The notes beneath the pieces were generated by a model. It made no database searches. It was not told the origin of the DNA and saw nothing but the letters and a program-made list of their open reading frames with translations. Of a stretch of DNA of 61,961 bases, positions 1-23,403 are shown one piece after another (within the stretch, counting starts at the first letter, position 1; each line of letters begins with the position of its first letter). Location of the stretch: the NCBI GenBank assembly GCA_042570405.1, contig JBHPGR010000005.1, positions 1-61,961 on the forward strand, read 5' to 3'. Source of the DNA: Candidatus Omnitrophota bacterium. Its GTDB lineage: Bacteria; Omnitrophota; Gorgyraeia; Gygaellales; Profunditerraquicolaceae. The position numbers were made by a program, and so were the translations under genes.

Positions 1-182
1 AGCCCCTGCCACCCTTAGGGCCTCAGCCAACCGCTCAGAGGAGGAGATAATACCCATACTTACAAAGATCTTTAACCTGGCAGGGCAATTCAGAGATGAT
101 CCAGCAAGAAATTCCTTCCTCAAATACACAGCCCCTGCCACCCTTAGGGCCTCAGCCAACCGCTCAGAGGAGGAGATAATAC
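1..182 (+). repeat. 53-bp direct repeat pair (1-53 and 130-182) inside the giant ORF, encoding APATLRASANRSEEEII twice
   Basis: agcccctgccacccttagggcctcagccaaccgctcagaggaggagataatac occurs identically at both positions, in frame. Confidence 0.9.
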
Positions 183-3100
183 AATCGTTTCGACAGCTCC
201 TTAGGGGGAAAACTAAAGACAATCTACCTCCCTACACCGGCTCAGGTGATACCTCAGTCCATAAGGCCTTTGATGATATAAATGCAAAGATTGAAAGAAG
301 GGATTTCGTTGGCGCCAGACGACTACTTGATGAATTACTCCTTGACCTAGAGGCAGTTAGAGATACCAATGATATAAGATCGCTGATGGAGAAGTGGAAC
401 AGGCGCTATCCTTCTGAGTTACCTGTTGACCTTCAACTTAAAGATATTCCTGGAGCTATAGAGATTGCAAAGAGAGCTGTTGATAGGATTGAGGATAAGC
501 CGCCCGCCGCCTACTCGCCCATCGTCAGAAATCCTCAACTCGAACAGGAGTTGGGCATATTAGATTCTTTGATGAAGAATCCGGCATTTTTGGAAACTAT
601 GGCTGGGGCTTTGCTGTCAGCATATAATGAACACGCTAATACAGACTATAGGATAACTCAAGATACAGATGCGACTGTTTTTACAAAAGAGGATTTAGAT
701 AGGACGCAGAATTTAGCGGGTTTAATAGGGGTGGAGGTAGGAACGAGTGCTTTATTAGCAACAACTCGTAAGGGCAATTCTTTGGTTAGCGTCTTGAAAG
801 CCATTACAGAGGATATGTTAACAGAAAAGGAAATGAGATTATTAGCGCTCTTTGCCAACGCCACCTGGAAAGCCGGGGTTCCCTTTAGAGTCAAGACTGG
901 CTCAGATGGGGAAAGTTTGGGGCCCTATAGTCTAATGCAATCTCATCCCGATTTTGTGCCGGTTGTTTTAGCCAGGGAGGAAGTTGCCGAAGAGGATATA
1001 TTACAGATGAAAGTAGCGGCTCACAAATTGCTTTCTGCTATTCAACATATTGATGATCCGCAAGAGCAACTTGATAGGCTAGAATTCCTTCTTAAGAATA
1101 AGGGTTTTCTTGAGCTGCTGGCCCGCGAAAGCCTACAGGCTTACAATAGCCGTCATGGAACAAAGCATTCTATCAGCACAGACCAGACTTTGACCGGCCT
1201 TACAAAAAGAGATTTGGATATTGCTATGAATTTGCTCGGCTTTATTGCTTTAGAGGTCGGCGTAGGCGCTCTACTAGAGTTGACGCGTCAAGGACAGAGC
1301 ATGAGCGATGTTCTGAATGCTATTGTCGAGGGCAGGCTAACGGGCGAGGAAGAAACGTTATTAGCTCTCTTTGCCAACGCCACCTGGAAGGCCGGGGTTC
1401 CCTTTAGAGTCAAGACCGGCTCAGATGGGAGGAGTCTGGGACCCTATTTCAGGATTATGGAGCATCCTGATTTTCGCAGATGGGCACAATTGCCAGTTGA
1501 TGAACAGTTGAAAGATCTTATTCAGGTTCATGCTGCCGCAGCACAGCTTCTCTTAAGCGCAATAGAAGAACATAAGCAAGATGATCATCTATCCGCCTCC
1601 ACGCCTGCAGAGGATAAGAAGCCGCCCGCCGACCCTGCCGGTCGCCTTTCTGGGGCGAGGATTTTGGTAGTAGATGATGATAAAGTGGACCGCATGGCGG
1701 CTAAGCGCACTTTAGAGCTGGAGGGAGCAAAAGTAGTAACGGCTAATAATCCACAGGCTGCCTTAGCGGCATTTCAATCAAAAGACCCATTTGACGTTGT
1801 TATTACGGATAACGATATGGGGAAAGGAATAGACGGTCTTATTTTAGCTAACCAGATAAGGTCACTAAGCAATCAGCAGGTGCCGGTAGTAATGATGACC
1901 GGAAGCGTAGAGAGTGCGCAGAAAGGATTGGCTGAAGGAAGCATTGGTGAGCTTATAGATAAAGGCTTTGATAGCGATAAGTTAGCAAGAGCGTTGGTAG
2001 AAGCCGTAGCACGGCTGACAAAAGAACAAAAGCCCGCCGCCCCCTCGCCCGGCGCCGCCTCCCAGATGGCGCAAGACAAGGAGCTGGCTTCAAGCATAAT
2101 AGACTACCTGAACGGCGATTCGGATAACGCCCCTAAGACGGTATCAGATGGAGAAAATATATACACATTATCTGCTCAGCCCACTGAGATTCATACAGAT
2201 AAAATATATCGTCTGGGAGTCAGGGTTGCCTTGCGCAGGGAGAGCGATCAAGCGCTCGGTTATTTTCTGCGTTTTAGCATAAAAGAAGGCACGATACGCC
2301 GTCTGGATGTGACCCTGGGTAACGTAAGATTTGCCGGTTCTTCAGAGGAAGCCGATTTGACCGGCGAGGGATTAGGGCATCAGGTATTTAAAATTTTAGG
2401 CCGGATTATACCGCAGGGCACCGGAATAGACCTTTACATTACGAATAAAAAAACCAAGAGTCAGTTAGCAGAGGGATATTATTTTGATGCCGCAGGCCAA
2501 GTTAAAAAACAGGTTTCGAAAAATGAAAAAAGAGCTGATGATCCGCAGGTAACTGACAAAGATATGCCGGCAGTTATCCGGGATACTCTTTGGGGAGACA
2601 TATTGCATGGGGCGAAATTCGGAGATTTTCAGCTGACCATCCGTAACCGCAAAAAAGAGGCCCCTAACGATGAAGAAGAGATTATTGCTAAAGACCTGGA
2701 CGCCTTGAAATGGATGATCAGTAATCCGCAAGGAGCGGTAGGCAGGTTAGTTTATATCAGCGCCGTCAAGAAAGGCGCCGCCGCGCCCGCCGACTCCTCG
2801 CCTGCTACCACAATTGATGAATTATTGAATAGGAAGGATAAAACGATTACTTTTTCTACTTCACCTGATCCTTCCCGGGCATATACGATTCATGTACAAA
2901 AAGATTTTGTGGACCCAGACATTCTTTTCTCCGTAGACGATACTCCGCAATATATGCTATATGTAAATCAAGTTAACAATGAGGAAGAGGAATCCGAATA
3001 TCCAGTTGGGTTCGTCTCGGGTATTAAGATGGCTAAAGATAAAATAATGAATCTTGGCTGGGTGATTATCTTAGATTATCCCGGCATCCTTAAGGAGCTT

Positions 3101-6100
3101 GAAAGATTTCATAAAGAACGGGTCATAAAGCCTACCCCGCTTCTTGATTTAATGGGAATACATGTAGTCTTTGGACCTCATAGCGAATATTCGTCTCAAA
3201 TCAAGTTTTTGTACGGTTATTTAACCAATAGATCATCATTAAAGACGGATGAAGAAATAAGAGAATTTTTCCGGAAGGCCCCCCAAGATTATAGAAACCA
3301 ACTTATTGGACCGGCGGTAATTGAATTTTGTAATAGCTTTGTACCGGTTGGGGCCAAGATTAGGATTGCTCTAGCCCATAGAAAATCTTTAGAATTACTA
3401 AGATCAGGCGTAGCGTTTGAGGATACCTCGCTCGGGCGTTGGTTTAAGAGGTCTGGTTACGGGGTTGTTCGTGTCGAAGAGCAACCTGACAAGCTTCCAA
3501 TTTGTATTCTAGTCAAGAAACGCCTAGTACATCTTAGAGCTAATTGGCATAACCCAAAGGTACTCGGTAGGCATTATTCCGCTAAATCAGCCTCCTCGCT
3601 TAACCCCTCGCCTGCAGAGGATAAGAAGCCGCCCGCCGCCGAAGCGAGTGAAGCGAGCGAAGTCCCGAGTGCCGATCGGAGAAGTGCGGAAATGAGGGGC
3701 CCCTCGTCTGCCACAGCCGCGTCCGCACCGCGCGCCGCCTCCACGTCTATCCAGCCCGCGCAAGAGGAGTCAATGTTTACCGGAATAGAAGTCAGGGAAT
3801 ATGTCCGCCCTCCTAAACACGGGCTTGTAGAAGGCAAACGCAAATTAGTTGGGCAAAACAAAGGCGTGTTTAACGAAGGGCGCATTGAGACGCCAGGGGT
3901 CGCCAATTGTGTAGCCCTGATTATTATCAATGAAGATACGGGAGAACAATTTGTTGCCCATCTCGATGCTAGCTCAAGACTTAGTCATGCTGAAGGCTTG
4001 CCAGATAAACTGCTTTCTTGGAAGTCCAAGAAAGCAGTTTTAACAGGCGGTATGCAGAATATGGGGTCCGACGATATAGTCAAACACGCCTTAGGATTTT
4101 TGACAAAGATAATATCCATTCCCACTAACAATATATACGGCTACAAATTATTAATAGACGATTATGAGCCCTTTGACATTGCTTCTATACCAGTTCTCTT
4201 AGAAAATGGTAAATACGATGTATATTTAACCACAGATACAAAAATTACTAGCCTTGAAGCATACCATGTAATAAAGGAGGGGCTTGAAAACGCGGGGAGG
4301 AGGCTTGAGGTTGTCGGAGGCGTTTCTTCGTCCGCCGCCGCCGAGCCGCCTGTCCCGAGCGCTGCCCCGGGAGAAGCGAACGCCGCCGCGCCCGCTGCCG
4401 AATCTCCTCTTCCGCTGCGGAGATCTGTCGGCGCAGCAAGGCCCGAGCATTACTTACCGTCAGCCCATGAGTATTGGCAGGAGGCGGAGGAGACATTGGC
4501 TAAGGCTGATTTAGGCGAGAAGGATATCGCAGATGCGCTAGAACTATTAGAGACTGTCATTAGTTACTGCTATTCCATCGCTCATGCTCAACCCCCAAAA
4601 GAGATCCTTATAAAGACAACGGAGCTTTTAATAAAAGCCAACCGCAGATATGCCAAGTTAGTATTGGAACACCCGGAACTTTTTGAGCCGGAGGCAGGGC
4701 TGAAGCCTATGGAAAAAGATCAGGCGCAGAAACTGATGGATGATTTCTTAGAGGCGCAGGGGGAGGAGGCCGACTCCATCTATCGCCCCAAGTATATAGA
4801 TGACGAAAGCCAGGAGCAGGTTGCGGCAGTACTTGATTTGACCAGCCTGCCTGAGGATACAGAGTATATTCTTGTGGGAGACTTGCACTCTCGCCTTGGC
4901 AATCTGATAAAGATCCTGAATACCAACGACAACTTCCAGAAGCTCAAAGACGGCAGGGCGGTTTTGATTATTTTGGGTGATGCCGTGCATCCTGAACCTG
5001 CCCCCGAAGAGGTGGAGGCCTTTATTAACTTGCTCGCTGAGAATCCAGAAGATGACGAATGGAAGGCACTGGTCGGCGAATTTCTCAAGGTAATCATGGA
5101 GGATAAGTCCATGGACCCTTCAGTAGCCACCATGCAGTTTATTATGCGCTTAAAGACTATGTTGCCTTTTAATGTCTTTTATATCTTAGGTAATCATGAC
5201 TATCTTACGGACAATGTAGTAAAGGGCGGCGTTAAGCAGGGGATACAGTATAAAAAAAGATTGGGCGAGCTTTACGGCAGGCTTTACGCTGAAGATGATT
5301 ATCAGGCTTTTATTAACGACAGCCCGATTGCAGTGGTCGGCGATGGATTTGTGGCAACTCATGCTGCGCCTCCGCCTATGATCGTCGGGCGGGTCAAGGG
5401 CAAGCTGAGGGATCCTACTATCATTGACCATATCTATGCGGCTGAAGCTGGCAATGAAGACGATCCGATCACCGTCGGGCTAATCGACGGCAGGATAGAA
5501 TTTAGCGAGGTATCAGGCAAGCTGCAAGAGATTTATTTGACTACTCCTGAGAAGGATACTGGGTATACCCTAGAGGATGTCGGGACTTTTCTGGAGACGA
5601 TGGGGCAGCCCGGAGGCACGATGTTCGTCGGCCACGGCGCCCTGGCAGATGGAGGCTGGCACTGGGATTTCTCCGGCAAAGACGTAAAACACCACATGAT
5701 CTATGCTGCCCGCGACCGGGTCGGCTATGCCTCGGTGAAGGCAGGTAAGGTCGAGTTTATCGAAGCCAGTGGTGCCTCTGCGCAGATCGAGACTGCTCCT
5801 CAGCCGTCTGCTTCAGCAGAGACCCCAGCACAGGCCGCAAAGGTCAACGGCATTATCGCTAGCAATGAAAAGACCGGTCGTTACATAGTAGCCAAGCTAC
5901 AAGAGATGGAGGCCTTTGTGGAGGGAGAACAGCAGGACGCTCAGGCCTTGGCTGAGAGGCAGGCTAAACTTGCTGAGATGATAGAGAACCATCAGGCCTA
6001 CCGCTTTGGAGATAGCCGGGTTCCCTTTATCCCGATTAAGGGGCTATTGAAGAATACCGGCCAATTCGCCCACATCGGATTAGGGAATGCCTATGGGGAG

Positions 6101-9100
6101 CCGGTGGTTTACATCGATGCTGATTATGCATATATTGGACCGGAACATCATGTCGATTATGCCGATTTAGAATTTAAGATACAGGTTTGGGGTCCTGAAC
6201 AATATGTAGAAGGTATCCAGGTAGCATACCGTAAGATCATCCATCGCCATGAACTAGAAGAGATAAGGCTGTGGGAAGAGGAGATAAGGGTGTCGGAAAG
6301 CGGGACTAGAGTTAATCCGTATTTACAAGGTATCTCTTCTCTCAGCGATGTCAGAAACTGGATGCGCGACCATATAAATGATGCCATATGGCTTACCGAG
6401 TACCTGCATAATCAGGCAAATAATATAGCCAATGTGGGGGCAATTTACAGGCAGGGCAATAAACGGGAATATAAATGGGGCATCCGGCAATTGGCCTGGT
6501 CGTCACTTAAGGAGACCCCCAGCATTGCCGCCAGCCCCTCGCCCGCCGAGACGAAGCCGCCCGCCGCCGATCCGACAGAGCCGGACAGAATAAAACGGGT
6601 CAGCGATTTATTGGCTTCGGCAAGAACAAGCAGGCCCGAGCCGGAAGAGATAGTTGGCCTGACGGAAAAAGAAATCTTAGAGGGCTTACGGCAAAGCCGG
6701 TTTTTCGGTGACAACAGCGAAATAGCCATCACTGCCATCCTGAATTCGCTGACTATGCGAGAATTAAGCAGCCTCATAGGACAACAATATATCCCTCTGG
6801 TTGTAACGGAGATGCTTAAAATCCTGCCCCGGTACGATAAGGTTCTTATTGCCGGAAGGGATGGCGAATTATTTTATGATGCGTTGAAGACGGTATTGCA
6901 GGGGATGCCCCAGGAAAATAAGGTTGTACTCTTCCCGGGCAGTTTTGCACTGATGGAAAGTCTTGCCTCCCGTGAAGCAAACGCAGACGCCAGACGCTTT
7001 TTAGCGCAGTTCGGTATTACCGAGGAGGTAATTCTTGGAGGAGGAAAGATACTGGTTTTTGACACCGGTTTTTCTGGTTCTGTGGGGGGCATTTTACGTA
7101 CTACTGTGTTTAGATTATTCGGCAGCGGCGAAGGTTTGGAAAGCAAGTTAATTGCTACGCAGAAAAATAATGTCCGGGCTGCGGAGATCACTGGCTTTGC
7201 CACCGAAGCTGATGCGCTCTACCGGCAATTCCCCAAGACTCTACCTTTTATCATCCAGGAAGGATATCCCTGGAGGACTTCTTATCAGACGCCGGCAAAT
7301 TTTGTCGTCGCTTCTGCCCTGCAGTTATTACCGCATTACCACGGTCATTATAGATTAGGCAGAGATGCGGCCGGGAATTTAATAGCCATTCCCGAAAGAG
7401 CTGCTATCACCGAAGACATCGACGGCATATATAAGAAATTGGGGGTAAATGCTTCTGTAGTCAATCCGGCGGCAGCCATGCTTGTACAGCGCCGGGTAAT
7501 AGAATATTTTAAACAGCGCCGCCAAGAAGTTTTAGCCGCAGCAGGCCTGGTTGCCCCGGCGTTACCCGTTACTACCCTAGCCGCGCCGCCCGCCGCCGCG
7601 GCCGCGCCCGCCGCTGAAGACGTACCCAGCACATTAGCCCGGGCCATCGCTCAGCTACACGAAAGTCCGATAGGCGAAAATTTTACCATCGGAGGTAAAC
7701 CAGCGGATGCGGATTATATCATCCGGGTAGAAGAAAACCATGGTGTATTGTACGATACCCGCATTGTGCTACGCCGGCGCGCGGATAATAGGACAATGGT
7801 CTACTTAGAGATAAGTACGCAAGACGGAACTAATGTCAAGATGGGTTGGATAAAAACACCGGATGCGCAGGATCGGCGTAAAGGCATGGCCTCTTTACTG
7901 CTTGCAAAATTAAGAGAGGTGTTTCCTGACGGCAGATACCTGGAGACTGAGATAGCCGAAGAAGAGACCTTAAGGGGGGTGAGAAAAAATACTCGCTTTA
8001 CCTTTGCCATTACGCCGCTCTTCGGGTTATTTAGAGGCGCTGGCTGGGAAGCAGTAGAGGTGTATTATGTGGATCGCAATGGTAATCACCGACCCGACAT
8101 TCAAAAAGCCATGGAGGAAGACTTAAGAGAATTTAGACGGGCGGGGGGCCGTGGCCTTGATGATAGGGCGTATGGCCGAGTATGGTTAAAAGTCCGACCG
8201 AAAGGCCAAGAAGATGAATTTGATCCGAGTCTGGACGATCGGGAAATCGATGATGATGCAGACGCCGCCGCCGCGCCGAGGGCTGCCGATGCAAAAAAAG
8301 AATATTCCTCGATCCGCGAAAGAAGAACTGCTTATCTTACTGCCGCTAGAAATATTTATTATAGCATACACCCAGCCTTAGTAAGGAGCATCGAAGAAAA
8401 AGGATACGATTTTGCCGATATGGTAGCTACCCTGTACCCGGACTATTCCTCCGACTCCGATGGTTTTATCTTTCCATCAAGAGTAAGGGCTAATTATCCA
8501 AAGCTGGATGATAACGATAGGCGGGGGCTTAAGGATATAATGCAAAATAAGCTTGGGTCAGATGCAGAACAAGAGGAATTTGCTATGCAACAATTAGGGC
8601 GGGCATACGCTATTTGGCTCATCGAAAAAAGCGGGCTCGACCCCAATCATTGGAAACGGGTCCTTTCTGGCAACAAAAATCCTAATTATACGCCAGAATT
8701 TCAAAGGCCGTTTTTTGATTTAGGCGCGGGCACTAATCCTATCTTCTGTCTGCAGAATCTTTTATCAGTCCGTAGTTACTTTTTTGTAGATAGCTCTCCT
8801 TTTGTAAGGACATTTTTGGATGAGGCTATAAATATTTTAGGATTAGACCGTAATAAAGTACAGGCGATACAAGCCGATATAACAAAACCGGAAATATTCG
8901 AATCTTATCTTAAAGAAGGTAGCGTAGGGACCTTAAGGATATCAAATATAGGACCTTATTTACAAGATCAGGAGATGCCAGAGGGTTGGTACGACAGGAT
9001 TATAAAATGCATTGCTCCCGGAGGCCAACTTATTATAGAAACACTCGCACTTCGTGAGCCACTCATAGATACTAATCTACTAATTTTAAGAGAGTTTGAA

Positions 9101-10207
9101 AAGAGAACCGGTACAGGATGGACGCAGGAGTTCGGCCATTATGATGAGAGAGACGGAGAATTCATAAGAGGCCAAGATGGCTCTCATGCTACGCGGCCTT
9201 ATTCCGCGTATGTTTTTACCCGGTCTTCAGATAAAAATGCCCCCGCGCCCGCCGCCGAGCCCGCGCCGCAGAATCTTTTTACTGTAGCCGAAATATTGGG
9301 GACGATGCAGAGAGATTCGCAATGGCGGTTTGCGCGTGACTACCACCGTTTAGATTTATATTCAAAAGCCTTCGTTTCTTTTCAATATAAAGCCAGAGAC
9401 TTAATCACTGCAGGGCAAGAGTCTGTAGTAATAGAATTAGAAAACGGCAATATCCTGAAGATTTCCGCGTTAGACTTTTTTGGCAAAAGAGACTTTAATT
9501 CTGATTTCGATGCGGCCTGCCTGGAAAGTGGCAAATTTACCGTTAAGGAAGGACAAGACAATATAGATATTTATTACATTATTCAACCCAAACTCGAAAT
9601 GACAGCTACCTTGGCAGATGCATGGCGTTTTATGGAAAGCCTGCCGTCAGGCTATAGAATGGGAGATATTCCTAAGGCAAGCAATATCGGATTTGATCCG
9701 GTTAAGAAGCGGTGGTTTTTGGTAGATACTTTTGCCGTTGAGGGGTCAGCCAGCGGCAAAGACAAAGATGACAATGATCCGCCGGCAGGTAGCTCAGCTA
9801 TGCCAACAAGCACTAGGGATCCTACAGACCAAGGCCCTGGTGGTATCGACTTCCGCGCCTTAGCGATTACTATTCAGCCGATGACGGCTATTCAGGGGCA
9901 GCCTGCTTTAGGGACAGTCCCCTTCGGGGACAGTCCCTTATCTGGCGAGTGGCTGCAGATCCAGCAGATGGTAGATAGAGGCATTATGCCGTCGGTTGAG
10001 AGGATTAAGGATGAGCTTAAGGCGCGCTGTGAAGATGATAATTTTGACAAGAATGTGTTGGCGGCGCTCTCCTGTATAGCTTCGATACTGCGCCTTGAAG
10101 AGGATAACTGTTGCTCGACTAATGCCTCCTTGAGGGGGCTATTAGTTTTATTGGAATCAGGAAGATCAGCCGGCGAGTTGAAGCTGGCATTAGATAATCA
10201 GATTTAG
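2..10207 (+). CDS. Giant modular multi-enzyme protein, 5'-partial (continues upstream of the window)
   Basis: I translated frame 2 by hand from nt 2 to the ATG at 386 and found no stop codon, so the track start at 386 is only the first in-frame ATG. The ORF is uninterrupted to TAG at 10205-10207. Recognisable enzyme motifs are separated by Pro/Ala-rich linkers. Confidence 0.9.
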   Translation, partial: APATLRASANRSEEEIIPILTKIFNLAGQFRDDPARNSFLKYTAPATLRASANRSEEEIIQSFRQLLRGKTKDNLPPYTGSGDTSVHKAFDDINAKIERRDFVGARRLLDELLLDLEAVRDTNDIRSLMEKWNRRYPSELPVDLQLKDIPGAIEIAKRAVDRIEDKPPAAYSPIVRNPQLEQELGILDSLMKNPAFLETMAGALLSAYNEHANTDYRITQDTDATVFTKEDLDRTQNLAGLIGVEVGTSALLATTRKGNSLVSVLKAITEDMLTEKEMRLLALFANATWKAGVPFRVKTGSDGESLGPYSLMQSHPDFVPVVLAREEVAEEDILQMKVAAHKLLSAIQHIDDPQEQLDRLEFLLKNKGFLELLARESLQAYNSRHGTKHSISTDQTLTGLTKRDLDIAMNLLGFIALEVGVGALLELTRQGQSMSDVLNAIVEGRLTGEEETLLALFANATWKAGVPFRVKTGSDGRSLGPYFRIMEHPDFRRWAQLPVDEQLKDLIQVHAAAAQLLLSAIEEHKQDDHLSASTPAEDKKPPADPAGRLSGARILVVDDDKVDRMAAKRTLELEGAKVVTANNPQAALAAFQSKDPFDVVITDNDMGKGIDGLILANQIRSLSNQQVPVVMMTGSVESAQKGLAEGSIGELIDKGFDSDKLARALVEAVARLTKEQKPAAPSPGAASQMAQDKELASSIIDYLNGDSDNAPKTVSDGENIYTLSAQPTEIHTDKIYRLGVRVALRRESDQALGYFLRFSIKEGTIRRLDVTLGNVRFAGSSEEADLTGEGLGHQVFKILGRIIPQGTGIDLYITNKKTKSQLAEGYYFDAAGQVKKQVSKNEKRADDPQVTDKDMPAVIRDTLWGDILHGAKFGDFQLTIRNRKKEAPNDEEEIIAKDLDALKWMISNPQGAVGRLVYISAVKKGAAAPADSSPATTIDELLNRKDKTITFSTSPDPSRAYTIHVQKDFVDPDILFSVDDTPQYMLYVNQVNNEEEESEYPVGFVSGIKMAKDKIMNLGWVIILDYPGILKELERFHKERVIKPTPLLDLMGIHVVFGPHSEYSSQIKFLYGYLTNRSSLKTDEEIREFFRKAPQDYRNQLIGPAVIEFCNSFVPVGAKIRIALAHRKSLELLRSGVAFEDTSLGRWFKRSGYGVVRVEEQPDKLPICILVKKRLVHLRANWHNPKVLGRHYSAKSASSLNPSPAEDKKPPAAEASEASEVPSADRRSAEMRGPSSATAASAPRAASTSIQPAQEESMFTGIEVREYVRPPKHGLVEGKRKLVGQNKGVFNEGRIETPGVANCVALIIINEDTGEQFVAHLDASSRLSHAEGLPDKLLSWKSKKAVLTGGMQNMGSDDIVKHALGFLTKIISIPTNNIYGYKLLIDDYEPFDIASIPVLLENGKYDVYLTTDTKITSLEAYHVIKEGLENAGRRLEVVGGVSSSAAAEPPVPSAAPGEANAAAPAAESPLPLRRSVGAARPEHYLPSAHEYWQEAEETLAKADLGEKDIADALELLETVISYCYSIAHAQPPKEILIKTTELLIKANRRYAKLVLEHPELFEPEAGLKPMEKDQAQKLMDDFLEAQGEEADSIYRPKYIDDESQEQVAAVLDLTSLPEDTEYILVGDLHSRLGNLIKILNTNDNFQKLKDGRAVLIILGDAVHPEPAPEEVEAFINLLAENPEDDEWKALVGEFLKVIMEDKSMDPSVATMQFIMRLKTMLPFNVFYILGNHDYLTDNVVKGGVKQGIQYKKRLGELYGRLYAEDDYQAFINDSPIAVVGDGFVATHAAPPPMIVGRVKGKLRDPTIIDHIYAAEAGNEDDPITVGLIDGRIEFSEVSGKLQEIYLTTPEKDTGYTLEDVGTFLETMGQPGGTMFVGHGALADGGWHWDFSGKDVKHHMIYAARDRVGYASVKAGKVEFIEASGASAQIETAPQPSASAETPAQAAKVNGIIASNEKTGRYIVAKLQEMEAFVEGEQQDAQALAERQAKLAEMIENHQAYRFGDSRVPFIPIKGLLKNTGQFAHIGLGNAYGEPVVYIDADYAYIGPEHHVDYADLEFKIQVWGPEQYVEGIQVAYRKIIHRHELEEIRLWEEEIRVSESGTRVNPYLQGISSLSDVRNWMRDHINDAIWLTEYLHNQANNIANVGAIYRQGNKREYKWGIRQLAWSSLKETPSIAASPSPAETKPPAADPTEPDRIKRVSDLLASARTSRPEPEEIVGLTEKEILEGLRQSRFFGDNSEIAITAILNSLTMRELSSLIGQQYIPLVVTEMLKILPRYDKVLIAGRDGELFYDALKTVLQGMPQENKVVLFPGSFALMESLASREANADARRFLAQFGITEEVILGGGKILVFDTGFSGSVGGILRTTVFRLFGSGEGLESKLIATQKNNVRAAEITGFATEADALYRQFPKTLPFIIQEGYPWRTSYQTPANFVVASALQLLPHYHGHYRLGRDAAGNLIAIPERAAITEDIDGIYKKLGVNASVVNPAAAMLVQRRVIEYFKQRRQEVLAAAGLVAPALPVTTLAAPPAAAAAPAAEDVPSTLARAIAQLHESPIGENFTIGGKPADADYIIRVEENHGVLYDTRIVLRRRADNRTMVYLEISTQDGTNVKMGWIKTPDAQDRRKGMASLLLAKLREVFPDGRYLETEIAEEETLRGVRKNTRFTFAITPLFGLFRGAGWEAVEVYYVDRNGNHRPDIQKAMEEDLREFRRAGGRGLDDRAYGRVWLKVRPKGQEDEFDPSLDDREIDDDADAAAAPRAADAKKEYSSIRERRTAYLTAARNIYYSIHPALVRSIEEKGYDFADMVATLYPDYSSDSDGFIFPSRVRANYPKLDDNDRRGLKDIMQNKLGSDAEQEEFAMQQLGRAYAIWLIEKSGLDPNHWKRVLSGNKNPNYTPEFQRPFFDLGAGTNPIFCLQNLLSVRSYFFVDSSPFVRTFLDEAINILGLDRNKVQAIQADITKPEIFESYLKEGSVGTLRISNIGPYLQDQEMPEGWYDRIIKCIAPGGQLIIETLALREPLIDTNLLILREFEKRTGTGWTQEFGHYDERDGEFIRGQDGSHATRPYSAYVFTRSSDKNAPAPAAEPAPQNLFTVAEILGTMQRDSQWRFARDYHRLDLYSKAFVSFQYKARDLITAGQESVVIELENGNILKISALDFFGKRDFNSDFDAACLESGKFTVKEGQDNIDIYYIIQPKLEMTATLADAWRFMESLPSGYRMGDIPKASNIGFDPVKKRWFLVDTFAVEGSASGKDKDDNDPPAGSSAMPTSTRDPTDQGPGGIDFRALAITIQPMTAIQGQPALGTVPFGDSPLSGEWLQIQQMVDRGIMPSVERIKDELKARCEDDNFDKNVLAALSCIASILRLEEDNCCSTNASLRGLLVLLESGRSAGELKLALDNQI
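521..1480 (+). repeat. Tandem duplication of a novel protein module of about 150-170 aa (two copies)
   Basis: Copy 1 contains LLALFANATWKAGVPFRVKTGSDGESLGPY...HPDF and copy 2 contains LLALFANATWKAGVPFRVKTGSDGRSLGPY...HPDF. The nt cores 841-929 and 1361-1449 are nearly identical while the flanks have diverged. Confidence 0.8.
1655..2020 (+). other. Response-regulator receiver (REC) domain embedded in the giant protein
   Basis: ARILVVDDDKVDR...FDVVITDNDMG...VPVVMMTGS...LIDKGF shows the acidic pocket DD, a phospho-acceptor Asp, and conserved T and K in canonical order. Confidence 0.8.
2070..2760 (+). other. GNAT-like module 1 (tentative)
   Basis: A beta-strand-rich run (IYRLGVRVALRR...LGYFLRFSIKEGTIRRLDVTLGNV) is followed by TGEGLGHQVFKIL, which resembles GNAT motif A. 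It is paralogous in layout to 7630-8230. Confidence 0.35.
3776..4310 (+). other. CheD/CNF1-type cysteine hydrolase (deamidase)-like module
   Basis: In IETPGVANCVALIIINEDTGEQFVAHLD, Thr is 6 residues before Cys and His is 17 residues after Cys. As I recall, this matches the spacing of the CheD catalytic residues. Confidence 0.45.
4860..5700 (+). other. Calcineurin-like / PPP-type metallophosphatase domain
   Basis: Ordered motifs are GDLHS (4877-4891), GDAVH (4976-4990), GNHD (5189-5200), ATHAAPP (about 5357) and GHG (5630-5638). Confidence 0.8.
7630..8230 (+). other. GNAT-like acyltransferase module
   Basis: MVYLEISTQDGTNVKMGWIKTPDAQDRRKGMASLLLAKLREVF contains RRKGMA, which fits the R-x-x-G-x-A acetyl-CoA binding motif A (nt 7871-7900). 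Confidence 0.5.
8690..9130 (+). other. Class I SAM-dependent methyltransferase domain
   Basis: Motif I is FFDLGAGTNP (8716-8733). It is followed by an acidic post-I residue (FFVDSSP), QADITKP and IAPGGQLIIE. Confidence 0.75.
9275..9745 (+). other. Protein-kinase-like module (tentative, atypical)
   Basis: AGQESVV (Gly-loop-like), NILKIS (Lys), YYIIQPKLE (hinge-like), GDIPKASNIG (catalytic-loop-like, with one extra residue versus D-x4-N) and LVDTF (DFG-like). Confidence 0.3.
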
Positions 10208-10280: not shown

Positions 10281-10763
10281 TTAAAGTGACCTATCCAGGC
10301 TTCTATATTGTATTGCCTCTGAAATATGCCCGGCCAGGATCATATCAGAATCTGCTAAATCTGCGATAGTACGTCCTACCTTTAGGATCTTATTGTATGC
10401 CCGCGCTGAGAATTCCAGCTCTGCCATCGCCATCTTCAGCAGTTCCTGCGCTGCATCCTCCAGAAGACAATATTTTTTGATCAGCCCTGTATCCATCTGA
10501 GAGTTGTAGAAGATCCCCTCTGACTTAAAGCGCTCCCTTTGCAGGTTATGGGTTCTTGCCACACGCTCCTTGATCATCCTGGAGGGCTCAGCATCTTTTT
10601 GATCGCTGAGCTCCTTATATTTTACAGGCGGGACCTCGATGTGCATATCGATCCGATCCATCAGAGGGCCAGAGATCTTACTCATGTAGCTGTGGATCTT
10701 AGTAGTAGAGCATTGGCAGGCCTTAGTGGGGTGGGTGTAGTATCCGCATGGGCAGGGGTTCAT
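10281..10763 (-). pseudogene. comM: comM/yifB (Mg-chelatase-like AAA+ competence protein), C-terminal fragment detached by the island insertion
   Basis: It starts exactly at MNPCPCGYYTHPTKACQC...MDRIDMHIEV...FSARAYNKILKVGRTIADL, the canonical ComM C-terminus. The N-terminal fragment at 22345-23403 ends with the same AMNPCPCG. Confidence 0.85.
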
Positions 10764-10764
10764 T
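10743..10764. repeat. Left attachment-site core (attL)
   Basis: tccgcatgggcaggggttcatt is identical to 22345-22366. Confidence 0.8.
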
Positions 10765-20244: not shown

Positions 20245-20766
20245 ATGAAAATCTGTTTGTACTGCAGGGTAAGTAAAAGATTAGGCCAAACAGTTGAAAA
20301 TCAGATCCCAATTTTGGAGAATTGGGCTAAACAGCAGAGGTTTGACTATGAGATCTTAACAGAGGCTGAAAGCACTCGTAACGCAAGGCCTGTCAGGGAG
20401 AGCATTGTCCAGAAGTTAAGAAACCGAGAAGCTGATGGGGTTGCCTGCGTCCGGTTAGATCGCTGGCTGAGGAGTTTTACTGATGTAGTGGTGGTTAAAG
20501 AGCTTGTTGACCGGGGTTGTTCTTTCTACTTCGTTAATCAGGGCTTTCACTTCTGCCGGGATAATAATAACGCTATGACAAGCTTGCAGCTTAATATGCT
20601 GAGCGCATTCGCAGAGTTTGAGCGGGAACTGATCCGGGAACGCACCTTTGAGGGTTTAGACCGGGCGAAAGCTGAGGGCAAAAAATTAGGCAGAAAAGTC
20701 GGTAGTAAGGATAAAAAAGAAAGGCGTAAAAGCGGTTATTGGAGAAGATACAGTAAGGACAAATAG
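20245..20766 (+). CDS. Small serine recombinase (resolvase/invertase catalytic domain, with a basic tail instead of a clear HTH)
   Basis: It has N-terminal CLYCRVSKRLGQTVENQ (the Y-x-R-V-S nucleophile motif) and the conserved EFERELIRERT helix E. Confidence 0.75.
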   Translation: MKICLYCRVSKRLGQTVENQIPILENWAKQQRFDYEILTEAESTRNARPVRESIVQKLRNREADGVACVRLDRWLRSFTDVVVVKELVDRGCSFYFVNQGFHFCRDNNNAMTSLQLNMLSAFAEFERELIRERTFEGLDRAKAEGKKLGRKVGSKDKKERRKSGYWRRYSKDK

Positions 20767-20777
20767 GGAGGTAAGAG

Positions 20778-20888
20778 ATGGCAAGCAAACTTTCAATTAA
20801 GGTGGTAAGGACAATCAAGTTGCAAGATGGTGAACGGAAAAAGCGCAGGGAGAAGATTCTTGAAGCACTCTTAAAACAAAATGGCTAA
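20778..20888 (+). CDS. Unlisted 36-aa basic small ORF overlapping the integrase start (possible directionality-factor-like protein; speculative)
   Basis: gggaggtaagag precedes the ATG. The product is [36 protein letters not shown]. Its stop overlaps the ATG region of 20881. Confidence 0.25.
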   Translation: MASKLSIKVVRTIKLQDGERKKRREKILEALLKQNG

Positions 20889-22338
20889 GATTCAGGCGCT
20901 TTATAGTAGGGTTTCTACTGATATGCAGAGGGAGAAGAACTTTTCGGTTCCTCGCCAGAAGAAGTGGCTTGATGAAAAAGCTAAACAATTAGGCTTTAAG
21001 AACACCAAGCATTATACCGATAATGGCTACTCTGCAACAGATTCAGACCGCCCTGCTTACAGCCGACTTATTGAGAACATTGGGGTAGGATTAGTTGATA
21101 CTGTATTAGTTTATAAAAACGACAGAATTGCAAGGGGGATCAGGGATTTAATAACTTTCTTGGATCTACTCAGCAACTATGGCGTAAAGTTTATCTCTAT
21201 TACGGAAAACTTTAATACATCTACCCCTACGGGTAACGCAATGATGATGTTTGCTGGGGTATTGGCTCAATGGGAAAGGGATATGGTTGTTGAGCGAGTT
21301 AAGGACGCTATGTGGGATATGGCAAGAGCGGGGAAATTTTGCGGTGGGCAACCACCATACGGGTATGATGTTAAGGATAAAAACCTCGTTCCCAACAAGG
21401 AGCAAGCAGATATACTTAACCAGATGTTTAGAATGTTTCCTGAAAAAAAATCCTTTAGAAGCATTGTTCATTGGCTTAATAAGCAAGGATATACTACGAA
21501 GCGAGGAACTTCTTTTGCTCAATCAACGATACGCAGGTATCTTACTAACCCGATCTACAGGGGGTATTTTACATATGGCAAGCGAGCAGGGAATTCAAAG
21601 AAAGTTCTGCCAAAAGAAGAATGGCTTACTATTAAGGGTAGTTTTGAACCGATAATATCCGAAGAACTTTTTGATCAGGTACAAGCAATCATTAGGCAAC
21701 GAGATTATGTAAGGCAAGACCTGACGGGTGAAGTCTATCTTTTGTCTGGCTTAATCAGGTGTGGTCAATGTGGTGGCAGGATGGCTGGATCTTACGCACA
21801 GAAAGAAAATGGCAAAAGATATTTCTACTATAAGTGCCATAACCATGATTCTAAGGGGGAATCAATTTGTGAGGGAAATACTGTAAGGCGGGATTATATT
21901 GAGGAGCAAGTGCTAGAAGAAGTCAATAGTTATGCAATCCAATTTGAAGAGGGCGAAGCGAAGAATATTATGGCTCATCACAATACCACAAACGAATTAA
22001 AACGGATAAATGCTACTATCAGTAGCTTGGAAAGGAAGCAGAATAAAGCCCTTGATTTGGCTCTTGATGGGGCATTACCTAAAAAACTACTCGTAAAGAG
22101 GATGGATGAATTAACAGAGGATCTTGATAGAGCAAAGTTACAGAAGGATAGGCTTACGATAGAAGCAGGAAATCACTCACGAAATAAGCGCGTTAATGTG
22201 TTGGAGCGGGTCAATCAGCTCAACGGAAAACTCAAAACGCTTCCAAGAACTACACAGAAAGAGATACTCAGGCAGCTAATTAAGGAAATTAGATATTATA
22301 AAACAGGGGAGATAGAAATTGAGAAATATGAGTTGTAA
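20881..22338 (+). CDS. Large serine recombinase (integrase)
   Basis: It has [11 protein letters not shown] at the N-terminus, a resolvase domain, a recombinase domain and a zinc ribbon (CGQCGG...YYKCHNH...C), followed by a coiled coil. The gene ends 7 nt from attR. Confidence 0.9.
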
Positions 22339-23403
22339 GCCCGTTCCGCATGGGCAGGGGTTCATTGCGCAGGCTAACATAAAGGAGGCAGGGAAGGTTA
22401 GCGTCCTGGCGATCCTTGAGACGCGCATGCTCCCATCCTCCAATGGCTGCCTTAGTGCCTCAAGGCACGCCCGCCTAAACTCAGGGAATTCATCTAAAAA
22501 GAGAACCCCGCGGTGGGCAAGGCTGATCTCACCCGGCTGGGGAAGTGAGCCTCCGCCGGTAAAGGCGGCGTCTGATATATTGTGGTGAGGGTTGCGGAAG
22601 GGCCTGGTGGCTAATATACCTTTTTTAAGGAGCCTGGCTACAGAGTGTATGGTAGTGATCTCCAGCGCCTCAGGTAAAGATAGCTCCGGCATAATGCTGG
22701 GGATCCTTTTTGCCAGCATAGTCTTGCCGCTCCCCGGAGGGCCGATAAATAGGATATTGTGCATCCCGCTAGCCGCCACCTCCAGCGCCCTTTTAGCCAG
22801 GCGCTGGCCCTTGACCTCTGCAAAATCCACCCGATAGTGTGCGTTGCGTCTAAATTGCTCCTGCCAGTTTATTCGGAAGGGCTTAAAGAGCCCGGGCTCA
22901 TTTAAGAAGTGTACGCTCTCTGCCAGGGTCTTGGTTGGCCAGGCATTGATTTCAGTGATTATGGCTGCCTCCGGAGCGTTCTGCCAGGGCAGGATTATGT
23001 TCTTTAGGCTGCTCTTTGCCAGCGCCGTGCAGACCGGCAGGATCCCCGGGGTGGGGCGAAGGCTGCCATCCAGGGATAGTTCACCGAGGATACAGTATTC
23101 AGGTAGATGCAGGCTGTTCATTTGGCCGGTTGCAGCCAGTATCCCCAGGGCGATCGCCAGGTCAAAGCTTGCCCCCTCCTTTCTGATGTCAGAGGGGGCC
23201 AGGTTTATAGTGATACGTGCCTGCGGCCACTTGAACCCTGAGTTTTTTATGGCGGATTTGATCCGCTGCCTGCTCTCTCTTACGCAGATATCAGGCAGGC
23301 CCACCAGCGTTACCGCCGGCAGGCCGGAAGCCACATCTATTTCAATATCAACCGGATAAGCCTCAATTCCCAATAGCCCGAAACTCCTCGCTCTTGCCAG
23401 CAT
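22276..23403 (-). pseudogene. comM: comM/yifB N-terminal fragment. Genuine comM sequence ends at about 22345, and the last roughly 23 codons are read-through into the island.
   Basis: It has a Lon-like N-domain ([17 protein letters not shown]), Walker A GPPGSGKT, and LFLDEFPEF. After ...[10 protein letters not shown] the sequence switches to the unrelated [11 protein letters not shown]. Confidence 0.85.
22345..22366. repeat. Right attachment-site core (attR)
   Basis: tccgcatgggcaggggttcatt is identical to 10743-10764. Confidence 0.8.

Follow-up and report, generated by a model that had tools for sequence, protein, structure and literature searches.

The DNA analyzed here is a stretch of 61,961 nucleotides from Candidatus Omnitrophota bacterium (assembly GCA_042570405.1, contig JBHPGR010000005.1, forward strand; referred to below as the window), which opens with the 3′ part of one long gene: an open reading frame (ORF) at positions 2-10207 on the forward (+) strand, comprising 3,401 codons and a TAA stop and open at its 5′ end. 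Sequence comparison places this giant gene, with high confidence, in a large family that is defined by a C-terminal domain, here termed S13, and is found almost only in Omnitrophota. A first-pass annotation made from the sequence alone had described the product as a chain of protein-modifying activities for which no family was known. This isolated novelty did not hold, since hundreds of family members reuse the modules in other orders, while the suggested likeness to giant proteins of uncultivated nanobacteria was borne out by the near confinement of S13 to Omnitrophota. The most informative features had been overlooked, namely the family-defining S13 itself and, probably encoded upstream of the window, a signal peptide and an N-terminal domain.

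The conserved ends of the S13 family

S13 (9833-10204, ~125 aa) closes the giant protein. It is built of a near-invariant motif, GGIDFRxLPIxTQP, which reads GGIDFRALAITIQP here, a variable spacer of ~20 aa, and a five-helix bundle with the consensus EWxxIExMLnaGIxPSxERIKEYL..C...LSCIADILRLEEE...T...L..LVLLES. The AlphaFold model shows the motif as disordered (predicted local distance difference test, pLDDT, <50) and the remainder as a confident five-helix bundle (pLDDT >90). No Pfam or NCBIfam model covers S13, and Foldseek returned no convincing structural neighbor of the bundle. We also considered a pentatricopeptide assignment and rejected it: matches to designer pentatricopeptide proteins had a low whole-sequence E-value, but the single repeats were weak, which leaves a helical-hairpin resemblance only. 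The domain had been called Cys-rich; it is real and highly conserved, but the label was overstated, because S13 contains only one near-invariant Cys.

An exhaustive HMMER search with the last 1,200 aa of the protein (aa 2202-3401) against 1.84 billion representative proteins gave 864 matches at E ≤ 1e-3, 435 of them at E ≤ 1e-10, and the best 150 of the 864 were used for module mapping. S13 ends 112 proteins of 130 to ~4,000 aa, lying at most 17 residues from the C-terminus in 112 of the 112 representatives. Residues 3278-3401 of the giant protein matched P0005 best, at 74% identity (E = 2e-44); the annotation of one relative reads hypothetical protein of Candidatus Omnitrophica bacterium. When the S13 alignment was run against a single genome for each GTDB species, 129 loci were confirmed, the best 80 of which were analyzed further. 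Among these 80, 62 were labelled Omnitrophota or Omnitrophica, and most of the rest came from assemblies automatically labelled "uncultured Planctomycetales". Several genomes hold two or three S13 copies. Taken by itself, this distribution points to an Omnitrophota origin of the window.

The other end of the family is conserved as well. Complete S13 proteins start with M..RK..KI.S.LLCF.LIFEQSGFAQ(V/I)AG, featuring a positive n-region, a hydrophobic core of ~12 residues, and GFA|Q at -3/-1; by the von Heijne rule, this corresponds to the predicted layout of a cleavable Sec-type signal peptide. It is followed by an N-domain of ~340 aa with the conserved blocks DKFRPLHLRYLSYD..NNFKLLLDKGD...FWVNLRPDSPD...LEADLQLKKDTA...IPTLTRPWIVP.EIIIRE...KATLKVMLEQDYLK...LNEYSSQLIRE...LRQVYYSLILAQWFK...GEYN...RSYFSGG, and also FRPLHLRYL. 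Signal peptide and N-domain are common to 31 complete representatives, with a column identity of ~0.8 up to approximately aa 340 and ~0.15 thereafter. The N-domain has no relative in Pfam, NCBIfam, or PDB. In complete members, the two ends are separated by 603-3,287 aa (median ~1,660); the family ranges from 0.6 to ~4 kaa (thousand amino acids), with few or no transmembrane helices, and the giant gene, at 3,401 aa without the N-domain, is among its longest members.

A hidden Markov model (HMM) of the N-domain matched 62 ORFs in the 80 loci, and the N-domain was present in the same ORF for 48 of 83 S13 ORFs. Most of the 35 S13 ORFs without it (24) start at a locus edge; of the remaining 11, no fewer than five are found directly downstream of an N-domain ORF and thus look like parts of split genes. 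At five loci (L003, L007, L031, L044, and L077), the family gene is spread over two or three adjacent or overlapping ORFs carrying the N-domain, the middle, and S13; in those public metagenome-assembled genomes (MAGs), the splits are either assembly frameshift errors or pseudogenes.

The N-domain HMM had no match in the window, the likeliest reason being that the contig starts within the gene. Frame 2-10207 contains no internal stop, while stops number 262 and 238 in the two remaining forward frames, and the probability of a 3,401-codon open frame arising by chance, computed at the local base composition, is ~8e-83. The first ATG is at base 386, yet bases 2-385 are also stop-free (P ~8e-4), and their GC content by codon position (0.55/0.44/0.45) resembles that of the remaining ORF (0.56/0.40/0.47); no Shine-Dalgarno-like sequence was found before ATG386. 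This stop-free, coding-like segment and the lack of a Shine-Dalgarno-like sequence at the first ATG confirm the earlier description of the frame as 5′-open, and the ORF most likely continues upstream of the window. An exact 53-nt direct repeat (1-53 = 130-182) opens the window; it is in frame with the giant ORF and encodes APATLRASANRSEEEII twice. The contig probably ended inside the gene because the assembler was unable to resolve this in-frame repeat.

Modules and linkers of the giant protein

Eleven to twelve Pro/Ala-rich, GC-rich linkers split the protein into ~13 modules, all on the forward strand; the linkers lie where the first-pass annotation had placed them, and its beads-on-a-string layout stands. 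A linker motif of the PAEDKKPPA type occurs four times. The DNA that encodes it includes 33 nt that are 97% identical between 1599-1631 and 3606-3638, ~2 kb apart, and occurs also at 6537-6569. Such near-identical linker DNA amid diverged modules suggests recent gene conversion or a substrate for inter-linker recombination. The motif is absent from 149 other representatives and present in 1 of 2,483 ORFs of the family loci.

When the whole protein was scanned against Pfam at E ≤ 1, only REC and Metallophos were reported, and scans of each segment (Pfam at E ≤ 10, NCBIfam at E ≤ 1) added nothing to these two. A PDB sequence search of the protein returned the receiver only, and sequence and profile searches against PDB gave nothing useful for S6, S7, and S9. 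With structure models and homologs included, at least some support was found for the majority of the module labels proposed earlier.

The REC domain (1661-1993; aa 554-664) is the clearest case, with a PF00072 match at 1.6e-16 (60.9 bits against a cutoff of 30.2) that upholds the original call, as well as NCBIfam and PDB receiver matches. Read from the sequence, its pocket residues are all kept: the DD acidic pair, the phospho-acceptor D (VVITD), T (MMTG), and K (IDKGF). Only one REC match was found among the ORFs of the 80 family loci. REC is one module among many, and the description of the polypeptide as "REC-controlled" was an assumption.

S7 (4424-5806) combines a helical region with a calcineurin-like metallophosphatase, matching PF00149 over aa 1623-1778 (nt 4868-5335) with 27.2 bits, above the cutoff of 21.5, in agreement with the first reading of this module. 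Its metal-binding motifs are complete (GDLHS, GDAVH, GNHD, H in THAAP, and GH in VGHGA) and are kept in paralogs. S7 homologs occur in other S13 proteins, and the metallophosphatase match of one of them (P0100) reaches 2.7e-13.

None of S4, S5, and S10 has a Pfam match. S10 (7634-8257), with an RRKGMA loop, gave a model (pLDDT 80-94) whose elements follow a GNAT-like order, with a helix after RRKGMA. Foldseek matched it to dozens of GNAT structures with a probability of 0.98-1.0, a target-normalised TM of ~0.45, and E-values of 0.02-0.1. S4 (2069-2776) aligned by hhalign to S10 at 77% probability and to S5 at 76%, with a BLASTP E-value of 5e-4 against S10, and S5 (2804-3616) aligned to S10 at 94% probability. 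The S5 homolog in P0130 (aa 1215-1469) keeps an RRNGIGNA loop, while the S5 loop itself is degenerate. The predicted structure of S10 points to a GNAT fold, and the alignments make S4 and S5 probable diverged relatives of this module; the former listing of a GNAT-like module, a related one, and a second GNAT-like one was essentially right, and the count becomes three GNAT-like modules.

S11 (8294-9241) is a class I S-adenosylmethionine (SAM)-methyltransferase-like module with FFDLGAGTNP as motif I. The module itself had no Pfam match at E ≤ 10 and found PDB methyltransferases only at E ~1, so that the methyltransferase label lacks a direct match; it is sustained through the homolog P0042, in which Methyltransf_31 matches within the homologous region at 3.4e-7 (30.5 bits against a cutoff of 27). 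DLGAGT and the acidic strand end FFVD are conserved. S11 also exists as stand-alone proteins, and stand-alone forms of S9 and S11 measure ~300-370 aa.

S12 (9269-9766) is a small protein-kinase-like module of ~130 aa with homologs in P0022, P0045, and P0092 and a model pLDDT of 85-95. Its top Foldseek matches are nearly all protein kinases (Cdc7, GSK3-beta, PKR, TNIK, CDK12, and MAP4K4), but the alignments cover only ~130 columns, about half of a kinase domain, at E-values of 6e-3 to 1.5, and there is no Pfam match. Candidate kinase residues are Lys in LKIS, Asp in GDIP, and Asp in LVDT. The kinase-like label is thus backed by weak but consistent structural matches, and membership in the kinase superfamily is tentative.

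S9 (6584-7561) is a widespread module of ~310 aa in which a helical N-subdomain is joined to a Rossmann-like alpha/beta core (model pLDDT >90); its loops R-D and D-T-G-x-x-G-S are invariant. Among the best 150 matches, it was found in 36 proteins at varied positions, with hosts of up to 7,375 aa, and also as a stand-alone protein of ~300 aa. S9 has no Pfam or PDB sequence match. Its best Foldseek neighbors, 7shg and 8a0m (phosphoribosyl pyrophosphate (PRPP)-dependent polysaccharide ribofuranosyltransferase/phosphatase enzymes), scored E ~5e-3; since all neighbors lie above E = 1e-3, an identity with these enzymes or with Rossmann methyltransferases is a lead and not an assignment. S8 (5834-6526) has homologs in P0044 (aa 470-540), L040, and L044 and a conserved core, GHIGLG..YGEPVVYID...HExxEI..WEE, which contains HExxE and not the HExxH of zincins. 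Its model is below pLDDT 50 across most of the module and gives no confident fold.

The protein begins with S0 (2-496), an N-terminal fragment containing the in-frame 53-nt repeat, and continues with S1 and S2 (497-1036 and 1037-1594), a tandem duplicate of an unassigned module of ~180 aa with the invariant core LLALFANATWKAGVPFRVKTGSDG. S1 and S2 share 51% identity (E = 2e-50) in pairwise sequence comparison, which substantiates the duplicated novel module noticed in the first pass. S0-S2 had no match in species-genome or metagenome scans; for S1/S2, no relative appeared in genome or metagenome pattern scans or in a word-indexed protein search, which is a weak negative, as this type of search also missed the many relatives of aa 2202-3401 that the exhaustive one found. 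S6 (3749-4336) is likewise unassigned, with no Pfam, NCBIfam, or PDB sequence match even at E ≤ 10 and no homolog in the searches that covered it, the word-indexed one among them again being a weak negative. The earlier labelling of S6 as CheD-like from its Thr/Cys/His residues finds no support in Pfam, NCBIfam, or PDB. No profile similarity to the CheD glutamine deamidase (PF03975) was found, and the label goes back to a short motif resemblance seen by eye.

Seven of the modules (S5, S7, S8, S9, S10, S11, and S12) recur in other orders in other S13 proteins among the best 150 matches and the loci. Conservation of module order, proposed earlier as a check, was not found: order varies, and the same modules are reshuffled across the family. 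Independent assemblies commonly contain relatives of 2,000-4,000 aa built from modules of these kinds, and the module string of the giant gene is unusually long for the family. A Pfam census of 29 complete members found Metallophos in four members, SAM methyltransferases in at least three, FHA in three, and GNAT, NUDIX, GGDEF, LysM, and a twin-arginine translocation (TAT) signal in one each, with most of the length of each member dark to Pfam. This census marks the toolbox of modifying and signalling enzymes as a family trait.

Gene neighborhood and window surroundings

Recurrent neighbors of the family genes encode a PyrR-like phosphoribosyltransferase, PyrB, PyrC, and CarB. The genes for the PyrR-like protein, PyrB, and PyrC directly follow a family member, with CarB nearby, in up to 17 Omnitrophota genomes; examples of this position are L069 10526-11182, L020 11126-12247, and L001 12897-14294. 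These pyrimidine-biosynthesis neighbors point to a stable chromosomal position of one paralog and not to a dedicated secretion or processing partner, and the candidate idea of a conserved secretion or protease gene beside the family genes was dropped. A neighboring ORF of 866 aa (L001 14562-17159), present in 14 loci, has a below-cutoff Pfam intein splicing match (31.6 against 35.8 bits). Two further loci, L055 and L056, lie at the two ends of contig VGKM01000005.1 (28,595 bp) in opposite orientation with identical match coordinates (2696-3043), and this contig looks like a palindromic (inverted-duplicate) assembly artefact.

Downstream of the giant gene, comM (Mg-chelatase-like, YifB/ComM) is split into a C-terminal part at 10281-10763 and an N-terminal part at 22276-23403, both on the reverse (-) strand. 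Between them lies an element of ~11.6 kb with low GC content (0.36-0.38) and a 22-bp direct repeat, TCCGCATGGGCAGGGGTTCATT, at 10743-10764 and 22345-22366. The element contains a large serine recombinase (20881-22338), a small resolvase-like ORF (20245-20766), a helix-turn-helix ORF, and many small membrane or lipoprotein ORFs. By these sequence features, the low-GC block is an integrative element inserted in comM, adjoining the giant gene. We rejected the possibility that the giant gene is part of this mobile island, as the island is bounded by the 22-bp repeat inside comM and lies wholly downstream. Other genes of the window, including those for leucyl-tRNA synthetase (LeuRS), SecA, MurJ, and a resistance-nodulation-division (RND) pump with its outer-membrane factor, show a diderm bacterial chromosome. 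PADLOC found no match to a defence system.

Export, delivery, and the alternatives

Omnitrophota are widespread, uncultivated, ultra-small bacteria, believed to be dependents or predators of other cells. Complete family members run from a Sec-type signal peptide through the ~340-aa N-domain and a variable module string to S13, and the missing 5′ end of the giant gene would encode the first two of these. We lean towards a compound explanation, in which the proteins are exported cargo arrays with constant ends and a variable enzymatic middle. The constant ends would serve export plus anchoring, docking, or delivery: the N-terminal signal would carry the chain across the inner membrane, a common partner would read the invariant, disordered GGIDF motif together with the helical bundle, and the middle would supply the enzymatic activities. 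The LysM domain and the TAT signal, each found in one member of the census, are in favor of export, and we infer an export and effector role for the family proteins. Given that SAM, acetyl-CoA, ATP, and phosphorelay chemistry depends on a cytoplasm and that the family proteins bear an export signal, the activities would most coherently be exerted inside another cell, as expected for the multi-effector cargo of a host-dependent or predatory bacterium. Taken by itself, this delivered-effector step is tentative. It would agree with proposals that Omnitrophota live in dependence on hosts or as predators and that their giant ORFs act on target cells (PMC10066038; 10.1101/2023.11.21.568195).

Several points weigh against the exported-cargo explanation. 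Some module assignments rely on Foldseek matches with E > 1e-3, the signal-peptide call was made by inspection under the von Heijne rule, and the signal peptide and N-domain of the giant gene itself were not seen but follow from family membership alone. No secretion or processing partner is conserved beside the family genes. REC, FHA, GGDEF, and kinase-like modules are typical of cytoplasmic signalling in the cell's own interior, and it would be uncommon for an exported effector to contain a REC domain. The export and docking roles are analogies, because neither S13 nor the N-domain has a functionally characterized relative.

These signalling parts lead to the alternative of a cytoplasmic or inner-membrane-tethered signalling megaenzyme, in which the N-terminal hydrophobic segment would act as a tether and REC, phosphorylated by a histidine kinase, would tune modules acting on the cell's own proteins. 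The family N-terminus, however, resembles a cleavable signal, with its ~12-residue core and small residues at -3/-1, and not a 20-residue anchor, and positive-inside topology would place the bulk of the protein outside either way. The REC catalytic residues are complete, the cofactors are cytoplasmic, and the module chemistries as well as FHA and GGDEF are typical parts of cytoplasmic signalling, yet REC is too rare among relatives to be a general controller, the scanned ORFs of the window include no histidine kinase, and LysM and a TAT signal are present in the family. A 2026 survey put the methyltransferase/HATPase/GNAT group of Pfam domains under signal transduction and described long proteins with transmembrane helices only as cytoplasm-facing (10.64898/2026.06.07.730766), which adds to the case for a megaenzyme. 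All in all, we regard this alternative as unlikely.

A cell-surface scaffold appears still less probable. Here, the protein would be a coat or adhesin-like structure made mostly of inactive folds, with the N-domain and S13 anchoring its ends to the envelope and the Pro/Ala-rich linkers serving as spacers. Giant Omnitrophota ORFs have been proposed as coat or adhesins (PMC10066038), and the family signal peptide with two conserved termini would suit such a role, as would the divergence of most modules beyond the reach of Pfam and the degenerate GNAT loop of S5 compared with P0130. Inactive folds are hard to reconcile with a metallophosphatase that keeps every metal-binding motif here and in paralogs, or with the intact methyltransferase motif I, S10 GNAT loop, and REC pocket. 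The Pfam scan of the whole protein detected no Ig-like, cadherin, dockerin, or discoidin repeats.

We give a similarly low probability to a polyprotein that is cut at the PAEDKKPPA linkers or at the GGIDF motif into separate small enzymes, a scheme that would be compatible with the exported cargo array. The linker motif is repeated four times, S9 and S11 exist as stand-alone proteins of the size given above, and the GGIDF motif combines invariance with predicted disorder; proteolytic processing has also been suggested for Omnitrophota giants (10.1101/2023.11.21.568195). On the other hand, Pfam detected no protease domain in the visible protein, and Pro/Ala-rich linkers are ordinary flexible spacers. 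PAEDKKPPA was rejected as a family-wide processing site, since its absence from the 149 other representatives makes it peculiar to the giant gene. Finally, an assembly chimera or a pseudogene, with the long frame not being one real gene, is highly improbable: the contig does open with an exactly repeated 53-nt sequence, recurring GC-rich linker DNA could lead an assembler astray, and some family genes in public MAGs are frameshift-split, but the chance probability of the frame is vanishing, the other frames are full of stops, members of 2,000-4,000 aa with a similar build occur in independent assemblies, and the frame ends with a proper S13.

Several known systems can be compared with the S13 family. 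MARTX toxins of Vibrio and relatives carry RTX glycine-rich repeats and a cysteine protease autoprocessing domain, and are secreted by a type I system without a Sec signal; their conserved ends bracket strain-variable enzyme effectors that act inside the target cell. Like them, the S13 family has constant ends around variable enzyme-like modules; unlike them, the giant protein shows no RTX repeats or protease domain in Pfam, and the family has a Sec-type signal peptide. The earlier suggestion of a MARTX-like effector array is therefore compatible with the family signal peptide and conserved termini, while the hallmarks of MARTX itself were not detected. Dockerins are calcium-binding, duplicated-loop modules, recognised by Pfam, that dock cellulosomal enzymes to a common partner. 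The S13 family shares with cellulosomal enzymes the diverse modules, the Pro-rich linkers, and a small conserved terminal module, but S13 gives no Pfam match, and no cohesin-like partner is known for the family. In the cargo of the type IX secretion system (T9SS) of Bacteroidota, many unrelated enzymes and adhesins share an N-terminal Sec signal and a phylum-restricted C-terminal domain of ~100 aa, much as in the S13 family; the T9SS domain is an Ig-like beta-sandwich (PMC11285876). S13 differs in consisting of a disordered motif and a five-helix bundle without an NCBIfam or Pfam match, in its phylum, and in the additional N-domain of the family.

Among long Omnitrophota proteins, methyltransferase, HATPase, GNAT, HAD, and REC are some of the commonest Pfam domains (10.64898/2026.06.07.730766), and giants of the Archaeovorin and dockerin types have been described (West-Roberts et al. 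2023, 10.1101/2023.11.21.568195; see also Seymour et al. 2023, PMC10066038). The published Omnitrophota giants measure at least 10,000 aa and are rich in transmembrane helices, with SecA-like, C39, HEAT, glycosyl-transferase/hydrolase, or dockerin/TSP3 domains, and lie beside type II secretion system/type IV pilus (T2SS/T4P) loci (10.1101/2023.11.21.568195; 10.64898/2026.06.07.730766). The S13 family resembles the published long proteins of the phylum in its taxonomic home, judged from where S13 occurs, and in its Pfam-dark strings of methyltransferase, GNAT, phosphatase, NUDIX, GGDEF, and REC-type domains; among those proteins, signal peptides are also common and action on a host or prey has been proposed. 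In contrast to the giants, the family spans 0.6 to ~4 kaa, has few or no transmembrane helices, carries its own N-domain and S13, and has pyrimidine-biosynthesis neighbors. Neither Archaeovorin-type Pfam domains nor convincing transmembrane helices were found in the visible 3,401 aa. The searchable literature yielded no description of a family with this conserved N-domain and S13, or of its motifs. Long modular proteins of this phylum have been published before; the family with conserved ends apparently has not.

On a conservative reading, the "unique megaenzyme" of the first-pass annotation is replaced by one long member of a large, shuffled family, with several of its module labels corrected or qualified. 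A bolder proposal, built on analogy and put forward tentatively, is that the conserved ends are the handles of a phylum-specific Omnitrophota sorting or delivery system that exports hundreds of shuffled multi-enzyme proteins; the giant protein would then be one of its largest cargoes, modifying host or prey proteins by acetylation, methylation, phosphorylation, and dephosphorylation. Very long Omnitrophota proteins are a known puzzle with few experimental handles, and a family with conserved ends is a concrete one. Should the constant ends prove to be signals for sorting or docking, they would define the cargo list of an export or delivery route and provide short, testable sequences for reporter fusions and pull-downs, and the "dark" giant genes of the phylum would become a catalogue of candidate effectors.

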